DNA of 62,746 nt from an uncultured Bifidobacteriaceae bacterium (lineage in GTDB: Bacteria; Acidobacteriota; Vicinamibacteria; Vicinamibacterales; JAMQPK01). The notes under the pieces are model-generated. The model had not been told where the DNA came from and did not search any database. It was given only the letters and a program-made list of their open reading frames with translations. Where the stretch lies: assembly GCA_964356125.1 (NCBI GenBank), contig CAYHHH010000009.1:1-62746 (forward strand). The letters are read 5' to 3'. Every line of letters starts with the position of its first letter. Positions within the stretch are counted from its first letter, which is position 1. This document shows positions 11,830 through 52,331 of the stretch, one piece after another. Position numbers and translations under genes: made by a program.

Positions 11830-11848
11830 CGGCCGCCATACAGGACTG

Positions 11849-14551: not shown

Positions 14552-14562
14552 CCGGCCCCCCG

Positions 14563-19097: not shown

Positions 19098-19274
19098 ACC
19101 AGCTACCGGCTACGAGCCAAGCCCTACTCGGTCGCGCGAAATTCAGCCGCGAGTGTTTCTACAACCGCCGTCGGCGTCGGGCCATCGTGCACGACGACGC
19201 GGTAGCGGAGCGTCAGCGGCGTGCCGGTCTTGATTGTGTACGGCCCGACCGCAGCGATGTTCGGGTTCAGCATC
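19098..19274. repeat. Copy A of a roughly 170-bp duplicated segment (3' end of the DUF6807 gene plus about 25 bp downstream); copy B lies at 57031..57190
   Basis: Hand alignment gives about 85 percent nucleotide identity. The encoded C-terminus AVVETLAAEFRATE-stop is identical in both copies. Confidence 0.8.
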
Positions 19275-22904: not shown

Positions 22905-25199
22905 TCACAATCGAAACAGGCGGTTGATCTTGACGACGAAGGCGCGGTTCTTGAGGTCCGGATAACCGCGGGCGCGCGTGTCACGTTCGTCGGTGTACAC
23001 GGCGAACAACTCGCTGCCGGGCCGGTATTCCCATCGCAGCCGGAGGTTCGCGCTGAGCGAACGCGCGGCGGAACCGTACTGCAGGAGACCGCTGAAGAAC
23101 ATTCTGGGAGTGGCCGTGTACGTCGTGCGGTTCGACACCACCATCTGGGTAAACTCTCCCTCGCGGAGATTCACCCAATTCATCGAGGCGCCGGGCTCCA
23201 GCGACAGGCGCGGCGTCACCTGGAGGCGGCCGCTGCTGAAACCGAGCGAGGTCTTCTCACCGCTATAGTAGCCGCCACTCTGCAGCGTGACCGTTCCTGT
23301 GAACCGGCGCTGGGTTCCCAGGAACATGGACACCAGCGCGTCGCGGAAGCCGTAGCCGCCGGCCGGGATCGACACCCCTCCCACAGAGAACGGCCGCTCG
23401 AGAAATTCGTAGCTCGACTGATATTGCGCCGATAGTCTGTCGCTGTTGTGGAATTCCACGTCGAACACGCCTTCGACGCTGCGCGTTTCCAGCCTCCCGG
23501 TGCCGTCGGTCAGGTACTTGTATTCCCCGCTGTAGGTGAACTTGCGCACGCGTGTGCTGGAGCGCGGCCGAGGGCTGAATCGAAACCCTCCACCCGCTCC
23601 CTGGAAGTCGTCGCGCTCGACGTAACCCATGTCGGGGTTGAAGTGATCGCCGACGGTGAGCCGTTCGAACACAAGACCATAGCGGTCGCTCGCATAATCG
23701 AACCGAAATCGATAGCTCGTGTCATCGCCGGAGAGGCCTGGCGTGCGTGTCTTCGCCACGTACGTGTTCACGGTGACGTGGTCGTATAACCCGAGGGCCG
23801 CATCGAGGCCGAAGGTTTCGCCAGCACCGTGGCCGAGCGTGGAGATCGATCGTCTCGTATAGAGAGCCCCGACGCTGCTGCGCCTCAGGAAATCGCGCTT
23901 GACGCGCATCACCGTGAAATTCGTCGCCGCGATCGGTGCGTCTCGGGTCCCGCCGGCCGCGCTCTGCACGTTCATCAGCCCCAATGTGACCTTTCCGACC
24001 TTGCCCGTCAGCCGTCCGCCGCCGTCAATGGGCACGACGCGGCCCGCATCGAGGCCGATGCGGCGGCTGAAGAACAGCATCGGCGTGAGTCCGCCGGACG
24101 TCGCACCGCCGAAGTCGAACATGCCCTGTCCTTCGAGAAAGAACTCCCGTTTTTCCGGATAGAAGAGGCTGAAGCGGGTGAGGTTGACCTGCTGCGTGTC
24201 GACCTCGACCTGCGCGAAATCGGTGTTGTAGGTGAGGTCGGCCGTCAGGTTCTGCGTCACGCCGTACTTCACGTCGAGGCCCACGCTGCCTGCTGGCTCG
24301 TTCGGACGCGCCGCCGCATCCTTCTTGACGCTCGAAAGGGCGTACGGCTTGATGTCGAGATTCTTGCTGCCGGGCGGCACTTCGAGGCCCACGATGGTCG
24401 CACCGTTCGACACCTGGGAAAGGGCGGTGTCGCCGCGGGTGCCGAGCAGGCGCGGCCGCGCGAGGAACGTCTCCTCGTTCTTGTGGCGGATGGTCCGGCG
24501 TATCTGAAAGCCCCACACCTGAGACGTCCCAGGCCTGTAGCGCAGCGACTTGAACGGAATCGCCGTCTCTGCCGTCCAGCCGCCATCGAACCGCCCCTCT
24601 CGATATGACCAGACCGGATTCCAGGAGCTGCCGCTGAAACGCTCGTTGGTGATTTCTCCGTCCCAGATACCGCCGTCTGCGTTGATTTCAAAGACGGACG
24701 CATTGCGGCGGCTGTAGAACGTGTCGAAGAAGAACGCGATGTTTTCGCTCCTTGGAATGCTCGAGCTATCGCGAACGATGCCGTTGACGACCCACCGCTC
24801 TTCCGGCGCCGAGTCCCAGCATCGAACCGACACGTACACGAATTCGCGATCGAAGAAAATCCACACGTCGGTCTTTTCGGTCGCGGGCTCGCCGGCGTTC
24901 GGCTCTATCTGCTCGAAGCCGCCGATCGCCGGGATGAGCTGATAGATCGCTTCGTCGAGCCGGCCATCCACGCGCAATCCCTCGCTGAGCCGGATCGCGC
25001 GAATGGTGACGCGGCCCTCGGCGTCACGGATTGCCACCGCTGGCGGGACCGGCGCCGGTGGCGTAAACAGGGCGGCTTCGGTCGGTCGTGGTGCGGCAGC
25101 GGCAGCCGGGAGCGCCTGCGCCCTGGCATGTGCCAGCGGCGACAGAGAAATCGCAAGCAGCAGCGCGCAGCGATTCAGATGAGACGCCCAGCGCACCAC
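22905..25199 (-). CDS. DUF5916 / carbohydrate-binding-family-9-like outer membrane protein
   Basis: Likely GTG start at 25199 or 25196 (VVRWASHLNRCALLLAISLSPLAHARAQA signal). The N-terminal CBM9-like part reads IDGRLDEAIY..., FFDREFVYVSVRCWD, FEINADGGIWDG, WTAETAIPFKSLRY. A long beta-strand-rich C-terminal part ends in ...INRLFRL. Confidence 0.7.
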   Translation of the reverse strand: MVRWASHLNRCALLLAISLSPLAHARAQALPAAAAAPRPTEAALFTPPAPVPPAVAIRDAEGRVTIRAIRLSEGLRVDGRLDEAIYQLIPAIGGFEQIEPNAGEPATEKTDVWIFFDREFVYVSVRCWDSAPEERWVVNGIVRDSSSIPRSENIAFFFDTFYSRRNASVFEINADGGIWDGEITNERFSGSSWNPVWSYREGRFDGGWTAETAIPFKSLRYRPGTSQVWGFQIRRTIRHKNEETFLARPRLLGTRGDTALSQVSNGATIVGLEVPPGSKNLDIKPYALSSVKKDAAARPNEPAGSVGLDVKYGVTQNLTADLTYNTDFAQVEVDTQQVNLTRFSLFYPEKREFFLEGQGMFDFGGATSGGLTPMLFFSRRIGLDAGRVVPIDGGGRLTGKVGKVTLGLMNVQSAAGGTRDAPIAATNFTVMRVKRDFLRRSSVGALYTRRSISTLGHGAGETFGLDAALGLYDHVTVNTYVAKTRTPGLSGDDTSYRFRFDYASDRYGLVFERLTVGDHFNPDMGYVERDDFQGAGGGFRFSPRPRSSTRVRKFTYSGEYKYLTDGTGRLETRSVEGVFDVEFHNSDRLSAQYQSSYEFLERPFSVGGVSIPAGGYGFRDALVSMFLGTQRRFTGTVTLQSGGYYSGEKTSLGFSSGRLQVTPRLSLEPGASMNWVNLREGEFTQMVVSNRTTYTATPRMFFSGLLQYGSAARSLSANLRLRWEYRPGSELFAVYTDERDTRARGYPDLKNRAFVVKINRLFRL

Positions 25200-25984
25200 A
25201 GGATCGAATTCCGTACGAGCATGCGGAAAGACGGATGGCGATGCGTCTCGCGCGACGCGCCGGGCTGAATGCACACGACCCTCGCCGTCGGATGCACGCC
25301 GACCCACGCCACTGTCGCGTCGCTTCCCGCGTGCGCGGTCTGGAGGAGCGGCGTGATGTTCGGCGACTGCCACATCCCCTTGTAGGTTTCTTCGTTCGCG
25401 ATGCTGAAGGGGCCGATGCTTCTGAGAACAGGGTGTGTGCCAACGGGACGGACATCCAGCCTTGCCGCCGTCGATGGCACTGACTTCTTCATGCCGGGCA
25501 GATCGTTGAGAACGAAAAGCCCACCAGTGACTTCCTGATACCACCACGGCCAGTCCTGGTTGTCGCCGAGCGAGTGATGGAGCAGGACGAACCCTCTACC
25601 CGCCTCGACCGCCTGTCGCGCGAGCGCGCGCGTCGCGTCGGGCCAATTCATCTGATCGTTGAGCACCAGAACGTCATACCCGGGGTGAGGCCTGCCGCCG
25701 CTCGGCTCCCATGGATAATCGCGAGGCTCGATCCGCTCCGTGCCGCCGCCGACGGCGCCCCGTCCGGTCTGCGGCGCCGGTACCGTCTGGCGCGCGGGGA
25801 GTTGCGCAGACTGAGGCACAAGCGCCGCAAAGTTTGCCGGCTGGTCAATGGGCCAAATCTCCATGCCGAAAAACATCGGATCCAGGAACATGTCCTGAAG
25901 CGATGGCGGATATGGCTTGCCTCCGGTGGTGAGCTGAACCCAGACCTCGGTCTTCGGAAATCGTTGCACCGCGTCAGGCGCCAT
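25175..25984 (-). CDS. ThuA-like (trehalose utilisation / class I amidotransferase-fold) protein, no signal peptide
   Basis: YDVLVLNDQ...GRGFVLLHHSLG...WPWW...VTGG and HPVLRSIGPF...ETY...VCIQPG..R....P.FR.LV.N.ILW are paralogous to the next gene. 11-nt overlap with that gene. Confidence 0.75.
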   Translation of the reverse strand: MAPDAVQRFPKTEVWVQLTTGGKPYPPSLQDMFLDPMFFGMEIWPIDQPANFAALVPQSAQLPARQTVPAPQTGRGAVGGGTERIEPRDYPWEPSGGRPHPGYDVLVLNDQMNWPDATRALARQAVEAGRGFVLLHHSLGDNQDWPWWYQEVTGGLFVLNDLPGMKKSVPSTAARLDVRPVGTHPVLRSIGPFSIANEETYKGMWQSPNITPLLQTAHAGSDATVAWVGVHPTARVVCIQPGASRETHRHPSFRMLVRNSILWCAGRLI

Positions 25985-26756
25985 TGAGTCTCCGTCCCGC
26001 CCACAGGATCATCCTGTGAACGATGTTGCGGTAATTCGGGTCTTGACAGACCGACCGCGTATGCCCCGGCTGAAGGCACACGACGCGTGCGTCCTGGTAC
26101 GGTCCGACCCATCCCACCGCAGGGTTATTGAAGGACGGATCGTCCGACTCGAGCAGCACGGTGGCCTTCGGCGAAATCCACATGTTCGGGAACGTCTCAT
26201 CCCAGGGAAGCTGGAACGGCTCGATGCCCTGAACGATCGGATGCGTTCCGACCGGCTTCAGCGTCTGAATCGGGAATTGTTTCAGCCGCTCTTGTGTCTT
26301 CATGCCCGGAACGCCGGGGTTGTACAGATAGCAGCCGATGACTTCCTCGCTCCACCACGGCCACTCGTTGTTGTTGGTCCCAACGGCGTGATGCAGGACG
26401 ACGACCCCCTTGCCAGCCCGAAGGTGCTTGACCATGTTGTCGCGCTCACCCTGCGGCCACCCTCCGGTGATCCAGTCATTCGTGACGATGACGTCGGGAG
26501 CGTGTGGTCCGACCACACTGTCGAACGCGTTGGGGTGAGGAAGCACAACAGTGTCCATGTCGCCGAACATGGGACTTTCGAACATGGCGTACATCTGAAG
26601 CGGCGAGGTGTGGCCTCCTCCCGTGAACTGCACGCGCAGAGGCGGCCCACGTCGGGCGCGTTGAGCTGTCTGAGCGGCTGCATCCGCAAACACCTGCGGC
26701 ACGGCCGCAGCGGCGAGCACGGAAGCAAACAAATGTCGGCGCGAAAACGTGGGCAC
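25974..26756 (-). CDS. ThuA-like protein with Tat-type signal (SRRHLF)
   Basis: MPTFSRRHLFASVLAAAAVPQVFA. ThuA motifs: FTGGGH, DVIVTND, GKGVVVLHHAVG, HPIVQGIEPF, LQPGH. Confidence 0.8.
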   Translation of the reverse strand: MPTFSRRHLFASVLAAAAVPQVFADAAAQTAQRARRGPPLRVQFTGGGHTSPLQMYAMFESPMFGDMDTVVLPHPNAFDSVVGPHAPDVIVTNDWITGGWPQGERDNMVKHLRAGKGVVVLHHAVGTNNNEWPWWSEEVIGCYLYNPGVPGMKTQERLKQFPIQTLKPVGTHPIVQGIEPFQLPWDETFPNMWISPKATVLLESDDPSFNNPAVGWVGPYQDARVVCLQPGHTRSVCQDPNYRNIVHRMILWAGRRLNGA

Positions 26757-26795
26757 CTGGTTTCTCCTTTTCAGCCTCTGACGAAACGCCCCGAT

Positions 26796-28544
26796 TCATC
26801 CGTTCGCCGCGTGGAGCCCGGCGAGCCGTCCGAACAACGCCGATTTCGCCAATCCGTGCTGAGATATCCCGCTCGCACATTCGCCTGCCGCATACAGACC
26901 CGGAATGGGCTGGCCGTGCAGATCTATCACCTGAGCATTCGTGTTGATTCGCAAACCCGCCATCACGTCGTGCAGGGCAGGCGTGGCCCAGGCGGCATAA
27001 AACGGCGGCGTGTTGATCTTGTGGGTGGGCGTCGGCTTGTCGAAGTCGAGGTCGACCCCTGCATCCACAAAGGCGTTGTAGCGTTCGACCGTTGCTCGCA
27101 GCGCATCGCCTGGCATCGGCCGCCACTGGTACGGGCAACCGATGATCGTGCGGGCCAGTTCCTCGATGGTGTCGGCGACGAAGAAGAAACCGCCGGCCGG
27201 ATCGACGTGCGGCGGCTTGGTAATCCAGCCCTGGCGCGTGACCGCGGCCGCATCGAAGATGGCCCAGATCGGTCCGCCGCCGTTCAGCTTCTTCGGATCC
27301 CCGGTCCATTGCAGCGCCGCGTCGATGTGCGCACGGCGCCCGAGCGACCCCAACGGCTTGCCGCGAAGCGTCTCTTCATAGAAACGCCGCCCGGTTTCCT
27401 TCACCAGGATCGCGTTCTGCCAGTCGACGATTCCGAGTCCGGTGGTGCCCTGGCGGAAGAACGCGGGGCTATCCGGCGGCATCAGTGGACCGCCCAATGT
27501 CAGCTTCGTCCCCAGCGAAGAGCCGGCGCGATCGATCTGCCGATCGCCCAGGTTTACCTGATTGCACGTCGTCCAGAGCGACGCCCCGATCGCCATCGCC
27601 GCGATCTCGCCGTCGGCATCCTTGGTCGTGTACGCGTGGCCCAGCACCTGGTACTCTTCGGTCAGCCGAGGATCGTAGATGCGGCGGAAGTTGACGTTCG
27701 CCGAAGGACCACCGGCCGCGACGACCACGCCCTTACGCGCACGGATGTTCACGGTTCGGCCGGTCGGATTATTCCACCGATCGACTTCGGCGGCCGTAAT
27801 GCCGAGCACCCGTCCGGAGCGGGCGCTCTCGCGGTGAATCTGCGTCATCCTGTGGAGCAGCAGGATTTTGATCCCCTTCGCGCGCGCGGCTCTTTCGAGC
27901 GGCCGTATCAGCCCCGAGCCGGTCCCGTAACCGGGTCCGTTCGGGATGATCAGCTCTGCCGGATTGGCCCAGCCTTTCACGACCGTCTGCCGCGGCACGT
28001 TCGGATCGCCCGGCCCACGAATGCCGCCCAATCGCGCCCATTCGACGCCGTTGCTCTCCAGAAACTCGAACGTAGCGACGGCGTTGTCTGCGAACGCCCG
28101 CACAATTTCGCGGTCGGCGTGCTTTGCGAGCGGATGCCCCTCGGTTCCGAAGAGCGCCGCATCGACTGGTGCGTGCCCCTCTGAGCCCGTCCAATCACGA
28201 AAGAACTGGTCCGGCGAATCGTGGACTCCCGCCGCCTGCTGCAGCCGATTTCCGCAACCCAACTGGACGCTGCCGCCACTGAGAATCGCTCGGCCGCCGA
28301 CATCCCAGTTCTTCTCGACCACAATCACCGACGCGCCGCGATCGCGCGCCGCGATCGCGGCGGGCATGCCGGCAGCCCCCGAACCAATCACGACCACCTC
28401 GTAGTCGAGGTCCCATCTGGTTGGCGTCGGGGCCTGCCCCGCCTCTGCTTCGTGCGAGCCGAGACCCGCCAGAGCGGCGGCGCCTCCGATGCCGGCTGCG
28501 GTCTCCTTGAGGAAGGCCCGTCTGCCCGTTTTCGTTTTGCCCAT
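26796..28544 (-). CDS. Tat-exported FAD-dependent oxidoreductase (FAD_binding_2 / KstD-fumarate reductase flavoprotein-like), paralog A
   Basis: Tat signal GRRAFLKETAAGIGGAAALAG. Rossmann motif VVVIGSGAAGMPAAIAARDRGASVIVVEK. C-terminal GLYAAGECASG flavin motif. About 70 percent identical by eye to 38737..40533. Confidence 0.85.
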   Translation of the reverse strand: MGKTKTGRRAFLKETAAGIGGAAALAGLGSHEAEAGQAPTPTRWDLDYEVVVIGSGAAGMPAAIAARDRGASVIVVEKNWDVGGRAILSGGSVQLGCGNRLQQAAGVHDSPDQFFRDWTGSEGHAPVDAALFGTEGHPLAKHADREIVRAFADNAVATFEFLESNGVEWARLGGIRGPGDPNVPRQTVVKGWANPAELIIPNGPGYGTGSGLIRPLERAARAKGIKILLLHRMTQIHRESARSGRVLGITAAEVDRWNNPTGRTVNIRARKGVVVAAGGPSANVNFRRIYDPRLTEEYQVLGHAYTTKDADGEIAAMAIGASLWTTCNQVNLGDRQIDRAGSSLGTKLTLGGPLMPPDSPAFFRQGTTGLGIVDWQNAILVKETGRRFYEETLRGKPLGSLGRRAHIDAALQWTGDPKKLNGGGPIWAIFDAAAVTRQGWITKPPHVDPAGGFFFVADTIEELARTIIGCPYQWRPMPGDALRATVERYNAFVDAGVDLDFDKPTPTHKINTPPFYAAWATPALHDVMAGLRINTNAQVIDLHGQPIPGLYAAGECASGISQHGLAKSALFGRLAGLHAANG

Positions 28545-28554
28545 GGTGCTGGTC

Positions 28555-30498
28555 CTACTTCCGAGGTTGGCCCCAGAAGATGAAGGTGCCGTACCGGGTG
28601 GCGGTCAGAATGTCCATGCGGCCGTCCGTGTTCAGATCGATCGGATACACGTCCGATCCGGCGCCCGACCGGTTGTGGATCAGCTCGGGGACAAATTCTG
28701 CGCCTCCCGGCGCCTTTGGATTTCGCACGGTGCGGTACGAATACAGCACCGCCTGGCCGTACGGATCCGGATCGCTGTAGTTGTCGAGATGCGACCAATA
28801 GCGTTTGCCGACAATGAAATCGAGCACGCCGTCGCCGTCCACATCCTCCACATTCGTGCCATGCGGTTGCGAGAACGCGACGCCGCCCGCATTCTTCGTC
28901 GAGAAATCGTCCATGATCATGTGCCGCACGAACGAGATCGTTCCCTGCGCGTCTCGCTTCTGCTCGAACCACGCCATTCCCCACCCGTGCGGGTTCAGCA
29001 CCGTCACCACGTCGTTCAGCTTGTCGCCGTTCACGTCGTAGACGGCCATCACGCTGCCGCCCATGATGTTCCAGCCATAGCGGCCGAACACCTGCGGATG
29101 ATACGTCCACGTTTGACTGTCGACTGTCGACTGTCGACTGTCGACTGTCGACTGGTCCGGCTGCTCCCACCAGCCGTACGGATTGACGATGTCCACGCGG
29201 CCGTCTCCGTTGATGTCGCCCACGCCGACGCCGTGCGCTGTCGAGAGGCCACGTTCCGACACGTTGTGAACGATCCACGTTCCAGTTGGATTCGCGGGAT
29301 CCGGCTCCGCGTACCGCATCTGCCCTTCAGCGCCGTACACGAGCTCGGGTTGTCGGTCACCGTCGATGTCGCGAAGCACGCCGATTTCGGTCTGATACGC
29401 CGGCACGACAAGATGCGTGTCCCATCGGCGCGGTTCGCCTCTCGGATTGACGTACAAATGGCAGCCGGGATTGCCCGAGAAGCTGCAGTTCAGCGCGTCG
29501 GCCCAGCCGTCGCCGGTGAAATCGCCGACGAATTGCATCCAGTTGTCTCGCGTGAATTCGGTGGACGGGTTGGTCGTGAGTTGCAGGTAAATCTCGCTGC
29601 GCCTGGTGTAGTCCGGCCCGTAGAACACGTGCGGTCCCGAGATCACGTCGGGCACGTTGTCGTGGTTGACGTCGGCGGCGCCCGCTCCCCAGGCGTAATA
29701 GAAGTCGCTCAACCGCTGCATCCTGAAGTTGCTGGACACTTTTTCGACCGGCCGCACCTGGATGCTCAGGTTTTTGTACGCGACGTCTTTGAATCGCACG
29801 TCACCCGTGCCGCCGACGTACAACGCGAGCGGACCGAAATTGCCCGCGTCGGGATCCGCGACGCCTCCCGCCCGTGCGCCGCCATCATTCAGATGGGCCC
29901 GAACGATATTCGCGTCGATGTGAATCTCGATCCGGTTCCACGCTCCGGCTTTCAGGCTGGCGTCAGGCGGCACGACAGGTGGTGTCACTCCGGCACCTCC
30001 CTGGCTGCCGCCGGCCGCGGCGGGCGCCGGCGCATGAGGGTCGAGCGGCGGTGCGATGCGCATCGATCCGCCGCCAGGCCTCAACACCTCACGCGTGAGA
30101 ATCTGTCCCTGCGTGTCCAGTGTCACGCGATGCGAAGCCATTTCTCCATCGGTAAGCGCGATGTAAATCCCCTTCAGTCCTGTCGGCGTCTTTTCCGCGC
30201 GAAGCAGCACACCGGTCTTGCATCCCGGCGCGCACAGAAACGATGCGTAGAAGCCCACGTCCTGATACGACCGATCGAGCAGCAGCCAGCCGCCGCCCGG
30301 CTGCTGCGGAGTGCCCACGATCTCGCCGTTTTCAGCGCGCCATGTCGCGTTCCCAACCGTGCGCCATCCGGTCAATGTTGAGCCCTTGAACGTGACATCG
30401 GGGTGGAACGACGGACCGATTCCTCGCACAGACGGTTGCGCCGCGAGCCACACAGCCGCGGCGGTCAGGATCGCGAGATGCGTCTTTGACATCGCCAC
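28555..30498 (-). CDS. Secreted DUF1080 + FG-GAP/VCBS beta-propeller protein, paralog 2
   Basis: Collinear with 20131..22077 and highly similar to it, including long identical nucleotide runs around 29097-29114. Confidence 0.8.
   Translation of the reverse strand: MAMSKTHLAILTAAAVWLAAQPSVRGIGPSFHPDVTFKGSTLTGWRTVGNATWRAENGEIVGTPQQPGGGWLLLDRSYQDVGFYASFLCAPGCKTGVLLRAEKTPTGLKGIYIALTDGEMASHRVTLDTQGQILTREVLRPGGGSMRIAPPLDPHAPAPAAAGGSQGGAGVTPPVVPPDASLKAGAWNRIEIHIDANIVRAHLNDGGARAGGVADPDAGNFGPLALYVGGTGDVRFKDVAYKNLSIQVRPVEKVSSNFRMQRLSDFYYAWGAGAADVNHDNVPDVISGPHVFYGPDYTRRSEIYLQLTTNPSTEFTRDNWMQFVGDFTGDGWADALNCSFSGNPGCHLYVNPRGEPRRWDTHLVVPAYQTEIGVLRDIDGDRQPELVYGAEGQMRYAEPDPANPTGTWIVHNVSERGLSTAHGVGVGDINGDGRVDIVNPYGWWEQPDQSTVDSRQSTVDSQTWTYHPQVFGRYGWNIMGGSVMAVYDVNGDKLNDVVTVLNPHGWGMAWFEQKRDAQGTISFVRHMIMDDFSTKNAGGVAFSQPHGTNVEDVDGDGVLDFIVGKRYWSHLDNYSDPDPYGQAVLYSYRTVRNPKAPGGAEFVPELIHNRSGAGSDVYPIDLNTDGRMDILTATRYGTFIFWGQPRK
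29115..29156. repeat. Heptanucleotide tandem repeat inside paralog 2: (GACTGTC)5 GACTGGT on the plus strand
   Basis: Counted directly from the sequence. Encodes QSTVDSRQSTVDSQ. The unit contains a SalI-type GTCGAC palindrome at every junction. Confidence 0.9.
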
Positions 30499-30522
30499 AT
30501 CCTTCTGGCCAATAGTGTTTTT

Positions 30523-31434: not shown

Positions 31435-31458
31435 CGCTGTGGCCCTCTCAACTCATCC

Positions 31459-34764: not shown

Positions 34765-34803
34765 CAAATCCTCCCTTATAGAGCCATTCAGTTAATCGGC
34801 CGT

Positions 34804-36816
34804 CTACGATTTCGCGGGAAGGGCGTAGGCAATGTACGCTCCGCGGGTGCAGAAGACGACATACTGGCGACCGTCAACTTCGTAGACGGCCGGCGCGCCT
34901 TCGGCCCCGTCTGGAAGCGCCGCGCTCCAGAGCACCTTGCCCGTGTCTTTGTCGAACGCGCGAGCTTTTCTCTCCACAGTGGCGGAGAACGCCAGCCCTC
35001 CGGCGGTGATCGCCAGACGCGCCTTGGGCCCGTGGACCTTGACGATGCCGAAGTTGTTTCCCGGGGGGTTCACGCCCACCGCTTCTCCATAGGGGATCTG
35101 CCACTTGATCGTCCCGTTGTTGAGGTCGTAGGCGGTGATGTTGGAGTAGGGCGGCGTCACGTGCAGCGGTGACGCCGAGTAGTTCGTGTACATCCGCGGC
35201 GGCACATCAGCGCCGTCGGGATACGGGGGCGGTTCGATGGCAGCAGCCGGAAGGGGCGCGGGCGGCTGCGACGTACCGGTGGGAGCTATCGGGGCCCGCC
35301 GACGGTCGGGGAGGATCTGCACACCGTCGACAGGGTTGCCATTCAGAACCGGAGGACTCCACAAGTTGCGGTTGACGTGCTGCGCAGCCTCGGCGGCCGT
35401 GCGGAAGTACCGCTGGATGGACGGTTGATCGTACCCGATCACATACATGGTGCCGGTGGCGAGATCGGACGAGGTGGTGAAATGAATCGCCCCACCAGAG
35501 TGACCGGGCATCATAACCGTCCAGTAATCGAGGCTAATGGGCGTGTAGAGGCCGTCGTTCCGGGCCTTCGACACCATCTCCGTCCATGTGGCTCGATCCG
35601 CATCGTTGAGAATGATCTTGTCGATGTCCTTCACCGTGTACGACTGCCGCACAAACGAGGGCGGCTTGGTTGGAAACGGCTGCGTTGGCGACAATTTCTC
35701 GCCGGGCACATCAGAGGGCGGAACCGGCCGTTCGGGAATGGGCCAGATCGGCTGGCCGGTCACGCGGTTGAGCACGTAGAGGAATCCGTTCTTGCTCGCT
35801 TGCGCGACGATGTCCACGGGCTTGCCGTTCTGGCGAACGGTTAGCAGTTGTGGTGCGGCAACAGGCTCATACTCCCACACGTCGTGATGGATCATCTGGT
35901 AGTGCCAGATCCGCTTCCCCGTGCGGGCGTCGAGCGCGAGCAGCGTGTTGGAGAACAGCGTATCGCCGTGGCGATCGCCGCCCCAGAACTCGTACTTGGG
36001 CGTGCCGACCGGGATGTACGCAATACCGCGCGCCTGGTCGATGCTCAGTTCCCCCCAGGCCGCCGCACCGCCCGAGTACGTCCAGGCATCCTTCGGCCAG
36101 GTTTCGTAGCCGTACTCGCCGGGATGCGGGATCGTGTGAAAGACCCAGGCCAAACTGCCGGTGACCACGTCGAAGGCACGAATATCCGCGGGGGGCGATC
36201 CGTAGGCCTCGCCGGTGGCCGATCCGAGGATGAGCAGATTCTCGAATACTTGGCCCGGGCTCTTCGAATTGTCCGGCTTGGTCCCGCGCGTCATGCCGGT
36301 CCGAAGATCCACGCGCCCGTTGCTCCCGAAGGTGGGCACAAGCTTGCCGGTCTTTGCGTCGATCGCCTCGAGATTGCCGTCTACACGAATAAAGAGTCGC
36401 TGGTCGGTGCGAGCTGCGTTTTCCCAATAGTTCAAGCCGCGGTAGACCCTGAGCCCGTTGCTCCCGGGGAACGGATGCACCCAGATCTCCTTGCCGTTTG
36501 TGGCATCGACCGCGACAAGGCTCCCGTTCTTCGCGAGGGCGTACATGACCCGACCCGCCACGAGCGGCTGGAACGTGTAGCCAACCTGGTCCTGGGTGTC
36601 ATAGGTCCAGGCGACCTGCAGGTTGGCCACGTTGGAACGATCAATCTGGGTCAGCGCCGAGTAGTTCGACGAATCCGGGGCGCCGTTCGCGTACTGCCAC
36701 GTCGTGTACGGCTCTGGACCCGCGTGGCCGCTCTGTGCGGCGAGCGCCAACCCGCCGCCCACCACGACCGTAAGCACCAGCCCTTGAATGGATCTGGAGG
36801 TCCTGAGCATTCCCAT
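34804..36816 (-). CDS. PQQ-dependent dehydrogenase (quinoprotein, 8-bladed propeller)
   Basis: Start ATG 36816 or 36810. Signature W.YANG..DSSNYSALTQIDRSNVANLQVAWTY. Repeated propeller W motifs. No CxxCH. Confidence 0.85.
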   Translation of the reverse strand: MGMLRTSRSIQGLVLTVVVGGGLALAAQSGHAGPEPYTTWQYANGAPDSSNYSALTQIDRSNVANLQVAWTYDTQDQVGYTFQPLVAGRVMYALAKNGSLVAVDATNGKEIWVHPFPGSNGLRVYRGLNYWENAARTDQRLFIRVDGNLEAIDAKTGKLVPTFGSNGRVDLRTGMTRGTKPDNSKSPGQVFENLLILGSATGEAYGSPPADIRAFDVVTGSLAWVFHTIPHPGEYGYETWPKDAWTYSGGAAAWGELSIDQARGIAYIPVGTPKYEFWGGDRHGDTLFSNTLLALDARTGKRIWHYQMIHHDVWEYEPVAAPQLLTVRQNGKPVDIVAQASKNGFLYVLNRVTGQPIWPIPERPVPPSDVPGEKLSPTQPFPTKPPSFVRQSYTVKDIDKIILNDADRATWTEMVSKARNDGLYTPISLDYWTVMMPGHSGGAIHFTTSSDLATGTMYVIGYDQPSIQRYFRTAAEAAQHVNRNLWSPPVLNGNPVDGVQILPDRRRAPIAPTGTSQPPAPLPAAAIEPPPYPDGADVPPRMYTNYSASPLHVTPPYSNITAYDLNNGTIKWQIPYGEAVGVNPPGNNFGIVKVHGPKARLAITAGGLAFSATVERKARAFDKDTGKVLWSAALPDGAEGAPAVYEVDGRQYVVFCTRGAYIAYALPAKS

Positions 36817-36850
36817 GGTCCACACCTCATTTCGGACGAGATTTGTTTTA

Positions 36851-36864
36851 AGAAACGAGTTTCT
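36851..36864. promoter_or_regulatory. Second palindrome AGAAAC-GA-GTTTCT between the TATGAC box and the PQQ dehydrogenase start
   Basis: Read directly from the sequence. The centre lies 41.5 nt upstream of ATG 36816, in a locally AT-richer stretch. Confidence 0.3.
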
Positions 36865-36899
36865 GGGGTACCAGCTTTTACGACGAACCGACACGAGCT

Positions 36900-36919
36900 C
36901 ATATGACCGCCGTCATATG
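36900..36919. promoter_or_regulatory. Palindromic operator candidate CATATGAC-CGCC-GTCATATG (core TATGAC-N4-GTCATA)
   Basis: Read directly from the sequence. Lies in the 134-nt gap between the NIPSNAP gene stop and the PQQ dehydrogenase start. Confidence 0.65.
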
Positions 36920-36950
36920 GCACTGGGACCGGGATGACGCATCTCCCAGC

Positions 36951-37775
36951 TTAGATCTGCGAGTACGCCGCGGGCCGCAAATACATGCTGCTGATGTTCG
37001 CGACGATTTCCGGATCGGTGAGGCCGGGCGTGGTGGAGAGCTTTCGCCACTCGGGATCGGCGCCAAACGCGCTCCACTGGGTGTCGCGCGCAGCCATGTT
37101 CTCGTACACCAGCATGTAGGTCAGATTCGGCATACTCGATCCGACGATCGTTTCGCCGAAGAAGACCGGCTGCATGCCGGCTTTCCGGAACAGCGCGATC
37201 TCGGCCGTGTTGAACATGTCGATCTTCTTCTTGCCGGCCTTCTCGCTGTGGCTTTCGTAGATACGGAGCTCGAAAATGCGGGCCCGCTTGCCATTTTCTC
37301 CTCCGCCAAAGGGCAGCTCCAGCTTCGGGATCCCCTCGAAGGCACGCATGAGGGAGCTGTTGAGCCGAACGAAGGCCGGCTCGGTTGCCGCAGCCTCCAG
37401 GTAAGGAGCCCCGGCTTTCTGGTATTCCGCGTCGGCCGCGAGCCGTGCCGGCAGAGACGCGAACGCGTCGAGACTCGGATGCACGAGCAGGACATACAAC
37501 GACGGGCTGTCGGCGCCAATCATCACGTTGAAAGCGCCTACCGGCCCGACCCCCGCGCGCTGAAGTGCCGGGATCGCCGCAAGACGCCAGTAATCGTCCA
37601 CAATCCGCGTGCGAAGCCCCCGCCGGAGATGGTACCGCCGCAATTCGTAGTACTCCGGCGACCGCGCGGGCTCACTCCCCCGCGAAGCGGTCTGCTCGGC
37701 GGCTGCCGCGGCGCCGCCCACCAGCAGTGTTCCTCCGGCCGCCAGCGTCGAGGTCACAAAATCGCGTCGATTCAT
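36951..37775 (-). CDS. Double NIPSNAP-domain protein with Tat-type signal
   Basis: ATG 37775: MNRRDFVTSTLAAGGTLLVGGAAAAA. Two NIPSNAP repeats (YYELRRYHL..., RIFELRIYES...MLVYENMAARD..W). Confidence 0.8.
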   Translation of the reverse strand: MNRRDFVTSTLAAGGTLLVGGAAAAAEQTASRGSEPARSPEYYELRRYHLRRGLRTRIVDDYWRLAAIPALQRAGVGPVGAFNVMIGADSPSLYVLLVHPSLDAFASLPARLAADAEYQKAGAPYLEAAATEPAFVRLNSSLMRAFEGIPKLELPFGGGENGKRARIFELRIYESHSEKAGKKKIDMFNTAEIALFRKAGMQPVFFGETIVGSSMPNLTYMLVYENMAARDTQWSAFGADPEWRKLSTTPGLTDPEIVANISSMYLRPAAYSQI

Positions 37776-37868
37776 TTCGCATCCCCCAGATTCAGGAAAA
37801 TGTAGGCGCCTTTGTTGTTGATGACGTGGGGCACGCACTCAACGCCGAGTCGGAAAGCGGGAACGGCG

Positions 37869-38714
37869 CTATGGCGCCATCGAGGCAGGCGCAGGCAGCG
37901 TCACCTTGCCTGTGGCCGCCCATTCGGCCCCCCGAGGAAAGAGCGTGGCAAACGCAGCGGTCTGTATCGTCGGGACATCGTGCCCCAGCACGGTGGTGAA
38001 GACGCGTCCTTTGCCGTAGTCCACCGTCCACATCACCGGCTGGTGCAGGCCGGGACCTGAAAGCGGCTGCGGCGCCTTCGCGTCGGTGCGCGAGGCCTGG
38101 TAGAGCGCATGATCGTCCCAGGCCGTGGCCAGCACGCGATACGAGCCCTCGGGCTGCCAGCGCAGGTTGGCATAGAGCTCGTCGTTCGCCTGCGGAAACG
38201 AGCTCTTCAGTCCCTTTGTGATGGGATGGTCCGGATCCTTGATGTCAACGACAAAGTCGTGGCGGGCTGAGTGGTGACCGTAGCCCTTGCTCGGTGCCCA
38301 CATGCCGGCGGCCAACTTCTCATACTCTGCCCAGCCATCGAAAGCCGCGACGGCAAAGTGGTAAATCACCAGGCCCTTGCCTGAGCGCACAAAATCCAGC
38401 AGAGCGAGATCGGCCCGATCCCCCCAACGCAGCTCGGGTCTGCCCCGTTCGTAGTAGTTCGAAATGACCAGGTCGTAGGGCGCCAGCGTCTCCGCGCTCG
38501 CACCGCGAAATTCTTCGGTCACACGAACGTCGAATCGACCGGTGTCCTCGAGCAGCTGGCGGAGGGCCGGCGTGGTGGCCCTCCAGTTATGCCCGTTCTG
38601 CCCGGTAATCATCAGAACGGAAATCTTCGCCGGCTCCGTGGCTGGCTGCTGGCCAACGACGAAGCCTCCAGCAGCCACAAGCGACAGGACGACGAGGGGC
38701 AGCCTGCGTTTCAC
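37869..38714 (-). CDS. ThuA-like protein with Sec signal
   Basis: GTG 38714 lies 6 nt after GGAGG. VKRRLPLVVLSLVAAGGFVVG. ThuA motifs: VLMITGQNGHNW, YDLVISNY, GKGLVIYHFA, HPITKGL, TVLGHD. Confidence 0.8.
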   Translation of the reverse strand: MKRRLPLVVLSLVAAGGFVVGQQPATEPAKISVLMITGQNGHNWRATTPALRQLLEDTGRFDVRVTEEFRGASAETLAPYDLVISNYYERGRPELRWGDRADLALLDFVRSGKGLVIYHFAVAAFDGWAEYEKLAAGMWAPSKGYGHHSARHDFVVDIKDPDHPITKGLKSSFPQANDELYANLRWQPEGSYRVLATAWDDHALYQASRTDAKAPQPLSGPGLHQPVMWTVDYGKGRVFTTVLGHDVPTIQTAAFATLFPRGAEWAATGKVTLPAPASMAP

Positions 38715-38736
38715 CGGGAACCTCCGTTCATTTCTT

Positions 38737-40533
38737 TCAATCGCCGCTCGAACGTTCTGACGTTCCCTGGCTCGCAGCATGGAGTCCTGCGAGGCGGCCG
38801 AACAGGATCGATTTAGCCAGGCCATGCTGGGCCACCCCGCTCGCGCATTCGCCGCCGGCATAGAGACCAGGGATGACCTGGCCGTTCATGTCCACGACCT
38901 GCGCGTTGGTGTTGATCCGGATGCCGGCATACACGTCGTGCAGCACCGGCGTCGCCCATGCGGCATAAAACGGCGGCGTCTGGATCTTGTCGGTGGGCGT
39001 CGGCTTGCCGAAGTCGGCATCGACTCCCGCGTCGACGAAGGAGTTGTACCGTTCCACCGTCATGCGCAGAGCGCTGCCCTGCATCGGCCACGTCTGATAC
39101 GGACACCTGGTGAGCTGACTCGCGAGCTCCTCGAGCGTGTCGGCGCTGAAGAAGAAGCCGCCTGCGCGATCGACGTACGGCGGTTCGGTATTCCACCGCT
39201 CGCGCTTCGCCGCAGCCGCATCGAAGATGGCCCAGATCGGGCCGCCACCGTTCAGCTTCTTCGGATTGCCGCTCCACGCCAGCGCCGCGTCGATGTGCTG
39301 GCGCCAGCCGAGCGAGCCCATAGGCTTGCCCCGGAGCGTCTCTTCAGAGAAGCGGCGGCCGTTCTCCTTCACCATGATGGCGTCCTGCCAGTCGATGATC
39401 CCGAGACCCATGGCGACCTGGCGGAAGAACACGGGGCAATCCGGCGGAATGGGGGGGCTGCCGTTCTGCCTGGTTCCGAGCCTGCCTCCCGCCCTGTCAA
39501 CCTGCCGGTCACCGAGGTTGACCTGGTTGGACGCCGTCCAGAGCGAGGCCCCGACGGACATGGCCGCCAGCTCGCCGTCGGCGTCCTTCGTCGTCCAGGC
39601 GCTGGCCCAGACCCCGTACTCCTCGGTCAACCGCGGATCGTAGATGCGGCGGAAGTTGACATTGGCCGAAGGCCCACCAGTCGCGATGATGACGCCCTTG
39701 CGCGCGCGGATGTTGACGGTGCTCCCTGTCGGCTTGTTGAACTTGTCGACTTCCTGAGCGGTGACGCCAATCACGCGTCCGGAGTTCGGGCGCTCGCGGT
39801 GAATCCGCAACATCTTGTGGAGCACCAGGAATCTGACACCCTTGGCCCGGGCATGTTTCTCCAACGGCCTGATCAGCCCCGTGCCTCGAGTGCCGTCGAC
39901 GATGTGCTCCGCCCGGTTCGGCCAGACCTTGACGTTGGCATTCCGGGGGACCTTCGGATCGCCCGGCCCACGCGTGCCGCCAAGGCCCGTGAACTCAACC
40001 CCGTGGTCCAGGAGAAAATCCATGGTCGCAACGGCGTTGTCGGCAAACGCGCGAATGAGATCCCGGTCGTTGTGCTTCGCGAGCGGGTTGCCGCCTGGGC
40101 CGTAGACGTCCGGATTGATTCCGGCGGGTGTCTGGCCTTCTGAGTCCGTGTAATCCAGGAAGAACTGATCCGGCGAGTCCTTGACCCCGTACTGCTGCTG
40201 CACCCGGTTGCCGCACCCCAGCTGAACCTGGCCGCCGCTGAGAATGCCTCGCCCGCCGACGTCCCAGCACTTCTCGACCACGAGCACAGTGGCACCGCGA
40301 TCGACCGCCGCAACCGCCGCCGGCATGCCCGCCGCGCCGGAACCAATGACGACGACGTCATAGGTCTGGTCCCACTTGACGTTTGTCTGTACCTGGGCCG
40401 CTTCCACGGGCGTCTGGTTTGCGCCAAGACCTGCGAGCGCCGCGGCACCTCCGATGCCGGCTGCCGCTCCCTTGAGGAACCCTCTCCTGTCGACGTTTCC
40501 TCCCCTGCTCTCAGGTCGCTGCTTCTTCGCCAT
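38737..40533 (-). CDS. Tat-exported FAD-dependent oxidoreductase, paralog B
   Basis: ORF 38737..41100 trimmed to ATG 40533 (one-base TGATG overlap with the upstream stop). The Tat signal reads DRRGFLKGAAAGIGGAAALAG. The Rossmann motif is VVVIGSGAAGMPAAVAAVDRGATVLVVEK. Confidence 0.85.
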   Translation of the reverse strand: MAKKQRPESRGGNVDRRGFLKGAAAGIGGAAALAGLGANQTPVEAAQVQTNVKWDQTYDVVVIGSGAAGMPAAVAAVDRGATVLVVEKCWDVGGRGILSGGQVQLGCGNRVQQQYGVKDSPDQFFLDYTDSEGQTPAGINPDVYGPGGNPLAKHNDRDLIRAFADNAVATMDFLLDHGVEFTGLGGTRGPGDPKVPRNANVKVWPNRAEHIVDGTRGTGLIRPLEKHARAKGVRFLVLHKMLRIHRERPNSGRVIGVTAQEVDKFNKPTGSTVNIRARKGVIIATGGPSANVNFRRIYDPRLTEEYGVWASAWTTKDADGELAAMSVGASLWTASNQVNLGDRQVDRAGGRLGTRQNGSPPIPPDCPVFFRQVAMGLGIIDWQDAIMVKENGRRFSEETLRGKPMGSLGWRQHIDAALAWSGNPKKLNGGGPIWAIFDAAAAKRERWNTEPPYVDRAGGFFFSADTLEELASQLTRCPYQTWPMQGSALRMTVERYNSFVDAGVDADFGKPTPTDKIQTPPFYAAWATPVLHDVYAGIRINTNAQVVDMNGQVIPGLYAGGECASGVAQHGLAKSILFGRLAGLHAASQGTSERSSGD

Positions 40534-42506
40534 CAGTCGACAGCTCCTTTCTTGCCGAAGAAGATCATCGTGCCGAAGCGCCCGTTGTTGACGATGTCTG
40601 CGACACCATCGGCGTTCATATCGACGACCAGCGGCTGCCGTCCTACACCGGAATTGTTGTGAATGCGATGTGGAACGAAGTCGACGTCGCCTCCGGGCCG
40701 GCGAACCAGCTTGAACCAGTAGAAGACGTTCTCCGCGTCCTCGTCGGCGGGCCAGCCGTACGAGTAGTGGAAGTTGCCGAGGTTGTGATCTCTGTGCTTG
40801 CCTGTGACGATGTCCTTCAGGCCGTCGCCATCGACGTCGCCGAGCGCGAGCCCGTGCATTTCGGTGAACACCACGCCATGGCTCCTGGCCGGATCGCGAT
40901 CCATGATCATGTGGCGGACAAAGGAGATCGCGCCCGCGCGGTCGCGTTTCTGCTCGAACCAGGCGAGCCCGTACGCATGTGCTTCGAGGCTCGCGATCAC
41001 ATCGTTGAGCCCGTCGCCGTTGACGTCGTACACCTGAATCTGCGCGCCACCTCCGGCGCCCTGGCCGGCACGGCCGAATTCTTCTGGGTGAAATTTCCAC
41101 GGCACTTTGGTTGGCGACTCAGGTTGCTCCCACCAGCCCCAGCCCCGGAGCACGTCGATCCGGCCGTCGCCGTTCACGTCGCCAATACCGATGCCGTGCG
41201 GACCCCAGCTCGCCTGTTCGGTCAACTGATGCACGATCCAGGGCTTCGTCGGATCGGACGGATCGGGCTCGGCGTAGTTCACTGCGGAGCCATTGCCTCC
41301 GATCACGAACTCAGGTTTCCCGTCCCGATCGATGTCGGCCATCTCGACGTTCTCGGACGGCCCCGCCAGGTTCAGAATCTCGAAACGCGCCCAGCGGCGC
41401 AGCTCGTTGTGAGGATTCACATACAGGTAAACGGGACTTCCGCCCGTAAACGCCTTGACCACCACGTCGGGCCAGCCGTCACCGGTGAAGTCGGCGGCCT
41501 CGCACGAAAGCGTGGAGCCGTAGTTGGTGACGTCGAGTGGATAGGTGTGGTCGATCGTTCGCCCCTTCCTGAAATCCGGTCCCATCCAGACCATGAGGCC
41601 GGCCACAATGTCCAGGTTGCCATCGCGGTCGACATCGGCCACGCACGAGCCGTCTCCGTGGAAATAGGGGGTGACCACCTGCACACGAAACCGGCTCGCA
41701 AACGTGTCGACTGTCGGAACGATCTCCGCGTAGTTGCGGATGGCGACGTCTCTGAATCGCACTTCCGCGCCAGGACTGCCGGCCACGCGCAACGCCAGCG
41801 GGCCGAAGGCGCCGAACTGCGGGCGGAGCGCAATGCGATCCCCCTGGCCGAAACCGGGACCCATCGCCGGAGCGGGGTACCCCGTGCTGACCGTCGTGCC
41901 GTTCAATACGACGTTCAGCGCCTGGCTGTCGGCGTTCACCGGCGTGAAGAGCCGCACTTCGACCTGATTCCATTCGCCGGGTCGAATGCTCGCGGGAGGA
42001 CGCGGCACCGACATCGGGTGACCGACAGGTGCGGGCGGAGGCACGCCGCCCTGCCGGCCACCACCGGCACCCGCACCGCCGCCGCGTGCAGCGGCGGGCG
42101 CGAGTTTGCGCCGTTCAAGTTCTTGTCCCATGGAACCGACGCTCAGCTCGTACGCGTTCAGATCGTCGTCAGTCAGGGAGATGTAGGTGCCCGTGGCACG
42201 CTCGCCCGCGCTCTCCATTCCCAGCAGAATGCCGGTCTGGCATTCGCCGGTGCAGCGAAATGAGAACTTCACGCCCAAATCCTGGTAGCCGCGATCGCTC
42301 AGGAGCCAGCCACCACCACCGGACGACACGGTGCCGATGATCTCGCTGCCTTCCACGCGCCAGGCAGCCGAGCCCTTCGCGTGCCACACGGCTGGATCTG
42401 TTCCATCGAGCCCGCCCACAAGACGTGCGGGCTGCTGGCCGAACGCCACGAGCGTGAATGCTGCCGCGAAGGCGGCGACCGCGGCCACACCTACTGTACG
42501 AGCCAT
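40533..42506 (-). CDS. Secreted DUF1080 + FG-GAP/VCBS beta-propeller protein, paralog 3 (lacks the heptanucleotide repeat)
   Basis: Same two-domain architecture as paralogs 1 and 2 but more divergent. The loop WWEQPESPTKVPWKFHP is 9 aa shorter than in paralogs 1 and 2. Confidence 0.8.
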   Translation of the reverse strand: MARTVGVAAVAAFAAAFTLVAFGQQPARLVGGLDGTDPAVWHAKGSAAWRVEGSEIIGTVSSGGGGWLLSDRGYQDLGVKFSFRCTGECQTGILLGMESAGERATGTYISLTDDDLNAYELSVGSMGQELERRKLAPAAARGGGAGAGGGRQGGVPPPAPVGHPMSVPRPPASIRPGEWNQVEVRLFTPVNADSQALNVVLNGTTVSTGYPAPAMGPGFGQGDRIALRPQFGAFGPLALRVAGSPGAEVRFRDVAIRNYAEIVPTVDTFASRFRVQVVTPYFHGDGSCVADVDRDGNLDIVAGLMVWMGPDFRKGRTIDHTYPLDVTNYGSTLSCEAADFTGDGWPDVVVKAFTGGSPVYLYVNPHNELRRWARFEILNLAGPSENVEMADIDRDGKPEFVIGGNGSAVNYAEPDPSDPTKPWIVHQLTEQASWGPHGIGIGDVNGDGRIDVLRGWGWWEQPESPTKVPWKFHPEEFGRAGQGAGGGAQIQVYDVNGDGLNDVIASLEAHAYGLAWFEQKRDRAGAISFVRHMIMDRDPARSHGVVFTEMHGLALGDVDGDGLKDIVTGKHRDHNLGNFHYSYGWPADEDAENVFYWFKLVRRPGGDVDFVPHRIHNNSGVGRQPLVVDMNADGVADIVNNGRFGTMIFFGKKGAVD

Positions 42507-45559: not shown

Positions 45560-45567
45560 GTTGGTCC

Positions 45568-46836: not shown

Positions 46837-46838
46837 CG

Positions 46839-47168: not shown

Positions 47169-47169
47169 G

Positions 47170-50640: not shown

Positions 50641-50659
50641 GGCGCGCTCCTTCTCTCTG

Positions 50660-52285: not shown

Positions 52286-52331
52286 GACGACCTCCAATGG
52301 CTACGTTTTACAGTGAGCCGCAACGGCCGCC

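Follow-up and report, generated by a model that had tools for sequence, protein, structure and literature searches.

What holds together the long run of genes for exported proteins in the middle of contig CAYHHH010000009.1, from an uncultured freshwater bacterium, probably of the Acidobacteriota? An original prediction, made from the letters of the window (the whole stretch analysed, 62,746 nt, 64% G+C), saw there a three-gene periplasmic module, duplicated in tandem and possibly devoted to the oxidation of sugars by way of 3-keto-glycosides. The module consisted of a DUF1080-FG-GAP propeller protein, a flavin adenine dinucleotide (FAD) oxidoreductase with a twin-arginine translocation (Tat) signal, and a ThuA-like protein. 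The three propeller genes of the window (propA, propB and propC), its two flavoenzymes (FAD A and FAD B) and its three ThuA paralogues (ThuA1, ThuA2 and ThuA3) were compared with relatives in other genomes, and a different unit emerged. The predicted ancient, pan-phylum core is a Tat-FAD gene followed by a gene that had been missed, here called cpd300 (Table 1). To judge by the gene orders found in relatives, the surrounding region is a compact periplasmic redox cluster, still present as such in close relatives, that was probably enlarged in this lineage only.

The pairing of FAD and cpd300 genes was followed in 79 loci of species-representative genomes, chosen for FAD homologues of 45-70% identity and mostly taken with 10-kb flanks. 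These loci came from Vicinamibacterales, Terriglobia, Longimicrobiales/Gemmatimonadota, Xanthobacteraceae, Beijerinckiaceae and other taxa. A cpd300 homologue was present in 67 of them, and in 66 of the 79 it lay downstream of the FAD gene on the same strand, with a median spacer of 59 nt; this order was found across Acidobacteriota, Gemmatimonadota, Alphaproteobacteria and others. A profile search gave at least 587 cpd300 clusters at 50% identity (E ≤ 1e-30). Every named homologue is annotated "hypothetical protein", and NCBIfam has no family for cpd300, the propellers, the ThuA paralogues or the NIPSNAP protein of the window. The cpd300 homologues are without a signal peptide and have no conserved cysteine; His200 is invariant, His217 nearly so, and the homologues share an acidic C-terminal tail. 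Some loci have two to five FAD paralogues in a tandem array, with a single cpd300 gene after or interrupting it (L084/L085, L172 and a 22-kb contig of P0019). On the P0019 contig the array lies beside genes for a pyrroloquinoline quinone (PQQ) dehydrogenase, a DUF1080 protein, two AP_endonuc_2 barrels, a cupin, a lactonase and a Gfo/Idh/MocA protein.

FAD A and FAD B belong to PF00890 (173.7 and 141.9 bits against a cut-off of 20.4) and have the dinucleotide-binding motif VVVIGSGAAG; among 100 FAD homologues the RR..F motif is almost invariant. Both had been linked to the Tat-exported glycoside 3-dehydrogenases, a link that is not supported, as they are PF00890 proteins, not homologous to the GMC family of those enzymes, and their folds match those of the fumarate reductase/KstD enzymes. 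Every NCBIfam functional model scored far under its cut-off, with TIGR01813 at 190 against 285 bits and the KstD model at 148 against 789 bits. An AlphaFold2 model of FAD A built from 100 sequences had a predicted local distance difference test (pLDDT) score of 91.3; it superseded a first model from 14 sequences, in which the pLDDT was 57.6 and the capping domain was unusable. Foldseek searches with the 100-sequence model gave E values down to 1.6e-34 and TM-scores of 0.51-0.64, and the two-domain fold is like that of solved PF00890 members. At 21-26% identity, the TM-scores were 0.63-0.64 for cyclohexanone dehydrogenase, 0.62 for KstD, 0.61 for the open form of flavocytochrome c3 and 0.58 for urocanate reductase. 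FAD A and FAD B are a separate subfamily of the class that oxidises or reduces a C-C bond beside a carbonyl or carboxylate.

Flavocytochrome c3, a soluble fumarate reductase, and the urocanate reductase UrdA are flavoenzymes of the periplasm, and the C=C bond on which they act is conjugated to a carboxylate. These two (1QJD, 6T85) were the best sequence matches to FAD A and FAD B in the PDB (E ~1e-30; 1e-47 with a profile), and KstD and cyclohexanone dehydrogenase were also matched. The matches raise the question of whether the flavoenzymes are periplasmic terminal reductases of the fumarate, urocanate or acrylate type, passing electrons to an unsaturated organic acid at low oxygen, with neighbouring genes that share no pathway with them. 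Such a role would fit their Tat export, the small cytochrome c gene that lies beside the FAD-cpd300 pair in L166 and L172, and the setting of the window in an island of nar/nos and type-II molybdoenzyme genes whose nos/scdA synteny is kept in relatives. We nevertheless consider it distinctly unlikely. FAD A and FAD B have no fused haem (cytochrome) or flavin mononucleotide-binding domain; LHDVMAG stands at the HHTMGG position of flavocytochrome c3; and the six residues opposite its ANRLGG segment, where the substrate arginine lies, are missing. By these motifs, the clamp-domain residues not being alignable, and by the low TIGR01813 and other NCBIfam scores, the two proteins fall outside the fumarate/urocanate reductases. 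The FAD family is, moreover, common in soil Alphaproteobacteria, and up to five paralogues are arrayed in catabolic neighbourhoods.

The highest structural scores were those with cyclohexanone dehydrogenase and KstD (4C3X, 7P18, 8AM3; best TM-scores 0.62-0.64), which share the PF00890 two-domain fold. 8AM3 is a cyclohexanone dehydrogenase, whose chemistry is α,β-desaturation beside a ring ketone (PMC10966990), and the alignment to its chain starts at query residue 3, i.e., it spans the signal region. PQQ alcohol dehydrogenases are, in addition, frequent neighbours of FAD relatives. These points speak for flavoenzymes that desaturate non-carbohydrate alicyclic ketones (cyclitol-, terpenoid- or steroid-like) pre-oxidised by PQQ dehydrogenases, an alternative that we regard as unlikely. 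The flavoenzymes share just 21-24% identity with the KstD-type enzymes and have another capping domain (TM ~0.6); they differ further in their dedicated signal-less partner gene, cpd300. The residues invariant among FAD homologues are mainly charged or polar (Arg, Asp, Glu, Gln, His and Trp), so that a hydrophilic substrate fits better, and the contexts with DUF1080, AP_endonuc_2 and the rhamnose cluster described below indicate sugars.

Neighbours of FAD relatives included PQQ dehydrogenases (in 27 of 83 loci), single-domain DUF1080 proteins, AP_endonuc_2 barrels, DUF6807 proteins, cupins and Gfo/Idh/MocA proteins; a Pfam census of immediate neighbours in the 83 loci was dropped because the rough gene calls were noisy with shadow open reading frames (ORFs). 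In L002/L003 a rhamnose catabolic cluster surrounds a cpd300-FAD pair (9079-11770) whose FAD protein shares 70% identity with FAD A; the cluster has genes for the mutarotase RhaM, an MFS transporter, an FGGY kinase, an aldolase/short-chain dehydrogenase, an isomerase-like barrel and a DeoR regulator. Some FAD arrays adjoin PQQ dehydrogenases, DUF1080 proteins and sugar-isomerase-like TIM barrels, and a pair lies in this rhamnose cluster; it is therefore plausible, though unproven, that a sugar-like substrate is oxidised in the periplasm. The carbohydrate theme of the original prediction is compatible with both the DUF1080 literature and the neighbours of FAD relatives. The 3-keto-glycoside reading proposed with it rests on family associations and is not supported, as the flavoenzyme is not a GMC protein and no ThuB gene was found among the window genes scanned. 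In L173 (805-5290) a FAD B-type gene (81%) and cpd300 have transposase genes on their flanks, which suggests that the FAD-cpd300 pair may move between genomes.

For the propellers, a second set of 80 metagenome loci with propA- or propC-type propellers (54-74% identity) was examined. Neither a FAD gene nor cpd300 was found in these 80 loci. Conversely, no ThuA gene and no propeller of this type was found in the 79 FAD loci by tblastn or by hidden Markov models of the window paralogues, which recovered positive controls and which, run on six-frame ORFs, would miss remote single-domain DUF1080 proteins such as one in L174. A ThuA3-like gene was near the propeller in one of the 80 propeller loci, 6 kb off. 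Genes that recurred around the 80 propellers were those for PQQ dehydrogenases, for an outer-membrane barrel of the type found in the window and, immediately downstream, for DUF6807. The DUF6807 gene follows the propeller in at least 10 of the 80 loci as well as in L175 and L176, and is a conserved partner of the propC type. Tandem DUF1080-FG-GAP propeller genes were seen in L147 (4220-8419) and L152 (2841-6549), and in L147 a ThuA3-like gene (14140-15060, 57%) lies ~6 kb downstream of them, with no FAD gene. The prop-FAD-ThuA triad was found only in five near-relative loci. The original prediction had named a lack of the triad in other genomes as grounds for rejecting it, and because the triad is lacking outside close relatives, those grounds largely apply.

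What the close relatives have is more compact. In L175 the order is propB-FAD-ThuA3-cpd300-propC-DUF6807, with identities to the window proteins of 86% (propB), 97% (FAD B), 88% (ThuA3), 65% (cpd300), 87% (propC) and 82% (DUF6807). L176 (FAD B 84%, propB 96%, propC 87%) has the L175 order plus one extra beta-propeller gene. Compared with L175, the window has two insertions: NIPSNAP-PQQ dehydrogenase-barrel between ThuA3 and cpd300, and propA-FAD A-ThuA1-ThuA2-DUF5916 between cpd300 and propC. The second set is itself found in L166 and L167 (FAD A 84% and 95%), where propA-FAD A-ThuA1-ThuA2 is kept and cpd300 is ahead of propA in both; in L166 a DUF5916 gene, its product 85% identical to that of the window, follows ThuA2, and the L167 contig ends inside ThuA2.

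The recurrence of the prop-FAD-ThuA order might be accidental, produced as genes for exported proteins were duplicated and inserted within a plastic island, with no common pathway behind it. The absence of the triad from the 79 FAD and 80 propeller loci is in keeping with such an accident, as are the stronger partners that its members have elsewhere (cpd300 for FAD; DUF6807, PQQ dehydrogenase or the outer-membrane barrel for the propeller) and the transposases around the FAD B-type pair in L173. Three points make an accident improbable, in our judgment. In L175, ThuA3 sits between FAD and cpd300, splitting a pair that is otherwise very tight; the same three families have been joined twice, with different propeller and ThuA subfamilies; and the 1-nt propB/FAD B and 11-nt ThuA1/ThuA2 overlaps, with short spacers, suggest co-translation.

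Is the second prop-FAD-ThuA set a copy of the first? The estimate that the FAD enzymes are about 70 percent identical was accurate (70.6%), and the same domain order is present in both sets, as had been said of the collinear paralogues, but the two are not copies of one block. The paralogue pairs diverge unequally: propA and propB are 39.1% identical, ThuA1 and ThuA3 22.8%, and ThuA1 and ThuA2 33%, whereas propA is nearer to propC (73.9%), with propB and propC at 39%. At the DNA level, full-length alignments were obtained only for fadA/fadB (74%, 1730 nt) and propA/propC (77%, 1854 nt). FAD B is closer to the FAD protein of L173 than to FAD A. In a neighbour-joining tree without bootstrap it groups with that protein, whose locus has cpd300 but no propeller or ThuA gene, and the sister of the FAD A clade is the FAD protein of L002, located in the rhamnose cluster. 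Because of these placements, the FAD A/FAD B split is old relative to the differences in context. A recent segmental duplication of the block is ruled out by the unequal identities, the DNA alignments and the FAD tree. It is possible that a differently bounded unit, FAD-ThuA-cpd300-prop, was duplicated earlier and its ThuA gene later replaced; such an event would account for the similar divergence of the FAD proteins (71%) and of propA/propC (74%), and for the propeller ahead of FAD A. The module with FAD A is a second prop-FAD-ThuA order, made of a propC-type propeller and a different ThuA subfamily.

The genes of the cluster are all on the minus strand and, corrected starts apart, at the positions first predicted (Table 1). 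From propB to ThuA2 (42506 to 25175) they are co-directional with every spacer ≤93 nt, and a gap of 306 nt precedes propC. The propC and DUF6807 genes overlap by 4 nt. FAD B begins at 40533 and not at the ORF start of 41100, and the GTG at 38714 is the most likely start of ThuA3. Just upstream of propB lies an ORF of 248 amino acids without a Pfam match (42665-43411, minus strand); L168, from the same organism as the window, has a 248-amino-acid gene in the identical position. A scan for promoters and terminators was uninformative (promoter-like sites, 1 against 3.1 expected; terminator-like sites, 18 against 13.4 expected). In the cpd300/propA spacer, at 30517, all three freshwater/lake metatranscriptome runs considered below have an extra T in a T6 run that is not in the DNA-run contig of the same sample, most likely a homopolymer or strain variation.

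Table 1. Genes of the cluster and its downstream neighbours in transcription order (positions in the window)
Feature	Position	Strand	Signals, domains and remarks
propB	40533..42506	-	Sec signal; N-terminal DUF1080 (PF06439) and C-terminal FG-GAP beta-propeller
FAD B	38737..40533	-	PF00890 flavoprotein, 598 aa; Tat signal DRRGFLKG; Pfam E 4e-41
ThuA3	37869..38714	-	Full-length ThuA-like; Sec-type signal; PF06283 E 8e-30
Double-NIPSNAP protein	36951..37775	-	Tat signal MNRRDFV; PF07978, two stretches
PQQ-dependent dehydrogenase	34804..36894	-	PF01011 E 3e-154; true start probably slightly downstream of 36894
Outer-membrane barrel, CarboxypepD_reg + OMP_b-brl_4, TonB-dependent-receptor-like	31459..34767	-	PF25183 E 6e-197
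cpd300	30523..31434	-	303 aa, signal-less; weak PF13620 (CarboxypepD_reg-like) match near C terminus
propA	28555..30498	-	DUF1080 and FG-GAP propeller of propC type (Pfam)
FAD A	26796..28544	-	PF00890 flavoprotein, 582 aa; Tat signal GRRAFLK; Pfam E 1e-50
ThuA1	25974..26756	-	Divergent ThuA-like; Tat motif SRRHLF; PF06283 E 2e-18
ThuA2	25175..25984	-	Divergent ThuA-like, without signal peptide; PF06283 E 9e-18
DUF5916 protein	22905..25199	-	Signal peptide; PF19313 E 2e-22
Small COX4_pro-like membrane protein	within ORF 22908-22384	-	
propC	20131..22077	-	Third DUF1080 and FG-GAP propeller (Pfam)
DUF6807 protein	19124..20134	-	Sec signal; PF14100 E 5e-38
Cytochrome c	19031-18210	-	
NarG	18246-14563	-	

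Pfam searches bore out nearly all of the domains that had been named, above gathering score: PF06439 with PF13517/PF01839 in the three propellers, PF00890 in both FAD proteins, PF06283 in the three ThuA proteins, and PF07978, PF14100, PF19313 and PF01011. CBM9, the one domain of those named that Pfam did not detect, had been placed in the DUF5916 protein. The "TonB receptor" matched OMP_b-brl_4 and CarboxypepD_reg but gave no match to the Plug domain. The DUF1080 scores of the propellers were 47.7-59.4 bits (cut-off 26.8), and those of the ThuA proteins for PF06283 were 105, 68 and 66 bits (cut-off 33.4). The NIPSNAP protein was found only in the window's own organism, and not in L175 or L176.

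The calls of Tat signals and of a signal-less ThuA paralogue were also correct. Twin-arginine signals are present in FAD A, FAD B, the NIPSNAP protein and ThuA1, Sec-type signals in the propellers, DUF6807 and ThuA3, and none in ThuA2 and cpd300. ThuA3 is a typical ThuA-like protein (PDB 4E5V, E 2e-38), and its orthologue in L176 has no RR motif. The matches of ThuA1 and ThuA2 to the Pfam model are confined to its C-terminal two thirds; the ThuA1 Tat motif is kept as SRRHFLAS in relatives, L166 and L167 share the ThuA1-ThuA2 arrangement, and in L166 both the missing signal peptide of ThuA2 and the 11-nt overlap are kept. The gene arrangement of hitch-hiker export, which had been suggested for the two ThuA proteins, is therefore present twice, as a Tat-FAD gene with signal-less cpd300 and as ThuA1 with signal-less ThuA2, and it is conserved in relatives. 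Probably cpd300 and ThuA2 travel with their Tat-bearing partners, FAD and ThuA1. A reaction step for a ThuA-domain protein has been proposed from liquid chromatography/mass spectrometry of metabolites, the protein itself being unassayed (PMC11494336).

How does the cluster compare with known systems of glycoside oxidation? The ThuAB trehalose/disaccharide 3-dehydrogenase of rhizobia and Agrobacterium has in common with the window a ThuA-family (PF06283) protein. The link that had been drawn to ThuAB was not borne out, since no ThuB (Gfo/Idh/MocA) and no thuEFGK transporter was found in the genes scanned, 18.2-43.4 kb. Ampomah and colleagues are said to have placed ThuAB in the cytoplasm in 2013, whereas ThuA1 and ThuA3 of the window have export signals. 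The GMC glycoside/lactose 3-dehydrogenases (LacABC, G3DH) are, like FAD A and FAD B, FAD-dependent, dependent on Tat for export and genetically associated with DUF1080 (PMC9007349), but they are of a different flavoprotein superfamily (PF00732/PF05199) and have the Tat signal on a small Gluconate_2-dh3 subunit. Neither module contains such a subunit; the only one is at 61116-61691, beside a GMC gene. There, on the minus strand at 57216-61691, the gene for this Tat-signal Gluconate_2-dh3 protein is followed by those for the GMC oxidoreductase, which is signal-less (59413-61260), and for a PQQ dehydrogenase that has a cytochrome c domain (57216-59429). Periplasmic sugar/glycoside dehydrogenases classically have this arrangement, which here lies outside the cluster under study.

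The four-enzyme 3-keto-glycoside pathway, of the BT2156-2160 type in Bacteroides/Alistipes and also in Agrobacterium, resembles the window in having a DUF1080 domain. Its families include DUF1080, AP_endonuc_2 and Gfo/Idh/MocA (bioRxiv 10.1101/2024.03.25.586180), all of which adjoin FAD relatives elsewhere; its DUF1080 enzymes are 3-keto-glucoside lyases and 3-keto-2-hydroxyglucal hydratases (same preprint; PMC9007349). The window differs in that DUF1080 is fused to an FG-GAP propeller and that no AP_endonuc_2 or Gfo/Idh/MocA protein is present among the scanned genes, and the pathway as known involves no PF00890 enzyme or cpd300 protein. The propA sequence alone had no PDB match. With a profile of three propeller sequences one real match was obtained, in which the DUF1080 part aligned with 4JQT, a "putative glycosyl hydrolase" (E 3e-7); integrin matches (E >0.1) were dismissed as noise, and DUF6807 gave noise only in the PDB. 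A DUF6807-type gene has been found in an operon with two unconventional beta-galactosidases (PMC5342196). A literature search gave no paper joining ThuA with DUF1080 and FAD, DUF1080 with FG-GAP, or KstD with twin-arginine and sugar.

The flanks of the cluster (2575-18246 and 44780-52300) form a respiratory island with genes for ScdA, a cytochrome c-cupredoxin protein, NosZ, NosD, a NosY-like protein and NarI/NarH/NarG, together with a second type-II molybdoenzyme and its iron-sulfur subunit, a NarJ-like chaperone and an EB_dh/cytochrome c subunit. The propC-DUF6807-cytochrome c-narG genes run in one direction with short spacers. In L089, L092, L175 and L176 prop-DUF6807 again adjoins nos and scdA, so that this neighbourhood is conserved within the clade; in L175 it also adjoins a B12/radical-SAM gene whose product is 72% identical to that of window 52957-54825. 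The best named matches of NarG are 75-77% identical and mostly from Acidobacteriota, which makes an origin of the window in that phylum probable. DNA of the window is present in freshwater, lake, groundwater and soil metagenomes.

We tentatively favour, at a little short of an even chance, a periplasmic redox cluster with Tat-FAD and cpd300 as its core, which in this lineage has recruited DUF1080-propellers, ThuA and DUF6807, with a PQQ dehydrogenase and a barrel added in the window, and which would act, probably on a sugar-like hydroxylated ring substrate, by a KstD-type step beside a ketone. The substrate would be large and polar, probably a glycan, a glycoside or a compound like a cyclitol. 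It would enter through the outer-membrane barrel, the DUF1080-propeller proteins would bind and process it, and the PQQ and FAD enzymes would oxidise it in the periplasm. The flavoenzyme might carry out a two-electron step beside a carbonyl, either α,β-desaturation of a ring ketone or enone reduction, as in KstD/cyclohexanone dehydrogenase. Both cpd300 and ThuA2 would reach the periplasm bound to FAD and ThuA1.

Several points weigh against this proposal. None of substrate, product and complex has been observed, and the electron path, like the reaction, is only presumed. To our knowledge no PF00890 enzyme acts on sugars and the biochemistry of ThuA is undefined. Among Alphaproteobacteria the neighbours of FAD-cpd300 are Bug/TctC-type binding proteins, ABC transporter genes and amidohydrolases; because the contexts of the pair vary so widely, a sugar substrate is no general property of the family. 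The triad is restricted to close relatives and could be inherited synteny, and the position of the cluster within an island for nitrate and nitrous-oxide respiration makes a respiratory role an alternative. The proposal is supported by contigs of three freshwater/lake metatranscriptome runs that span ~25.3-42.9 kb and cross gene junctions, with greater depth at the propB end, but DNA may have been carried over into such contigs, and expression is poorly reflected in their depth. Finally, one characterised DUF1080 protein is a glucanase/xanthanase (PMC9007349), and the DUF1080 domains of the window are fused to propellers.

A more specific form of the proposal, which we think very unlikely, is that Tat-FAD and cpd300 make up a new two-subunit periplasmic flavoenzyme with KstD-type C1-C2 chemistry on 3-keto sugars, that the DUF1080-propeller, ThuA and DUF6807 proteins are accessory, and that cpd300 and ThuA2 piggy-back on their Tat partners. 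If true, it would add a flavin-dependent branch to oxidative, non-hydrolytic glycoside cleavage.

Oxidative, non-Koshland routes of glycan breakdown have been recognised only recently, and those we know of use GMC or Gfo/Idh/MocA oxidoreductases. In FAD-cpd300, a different class of flavoenzyme is tied to an unnamed family, and some genomes place the pair beside the lyase/hydratase families of the oxidative routes. What is new here is this pair, widespread and uncharacterised, and with it the six genes that relatives keep in a compact cluster. Should the pair act on sugars, carbon turnover by soil and freshwater bacteria that are abundant but uncultured would gain a new enzyme type; otherwise, Tat-FAD and cpd300, rather than the prop-FAD-ThuA triad, would still be the unit worth characterising.

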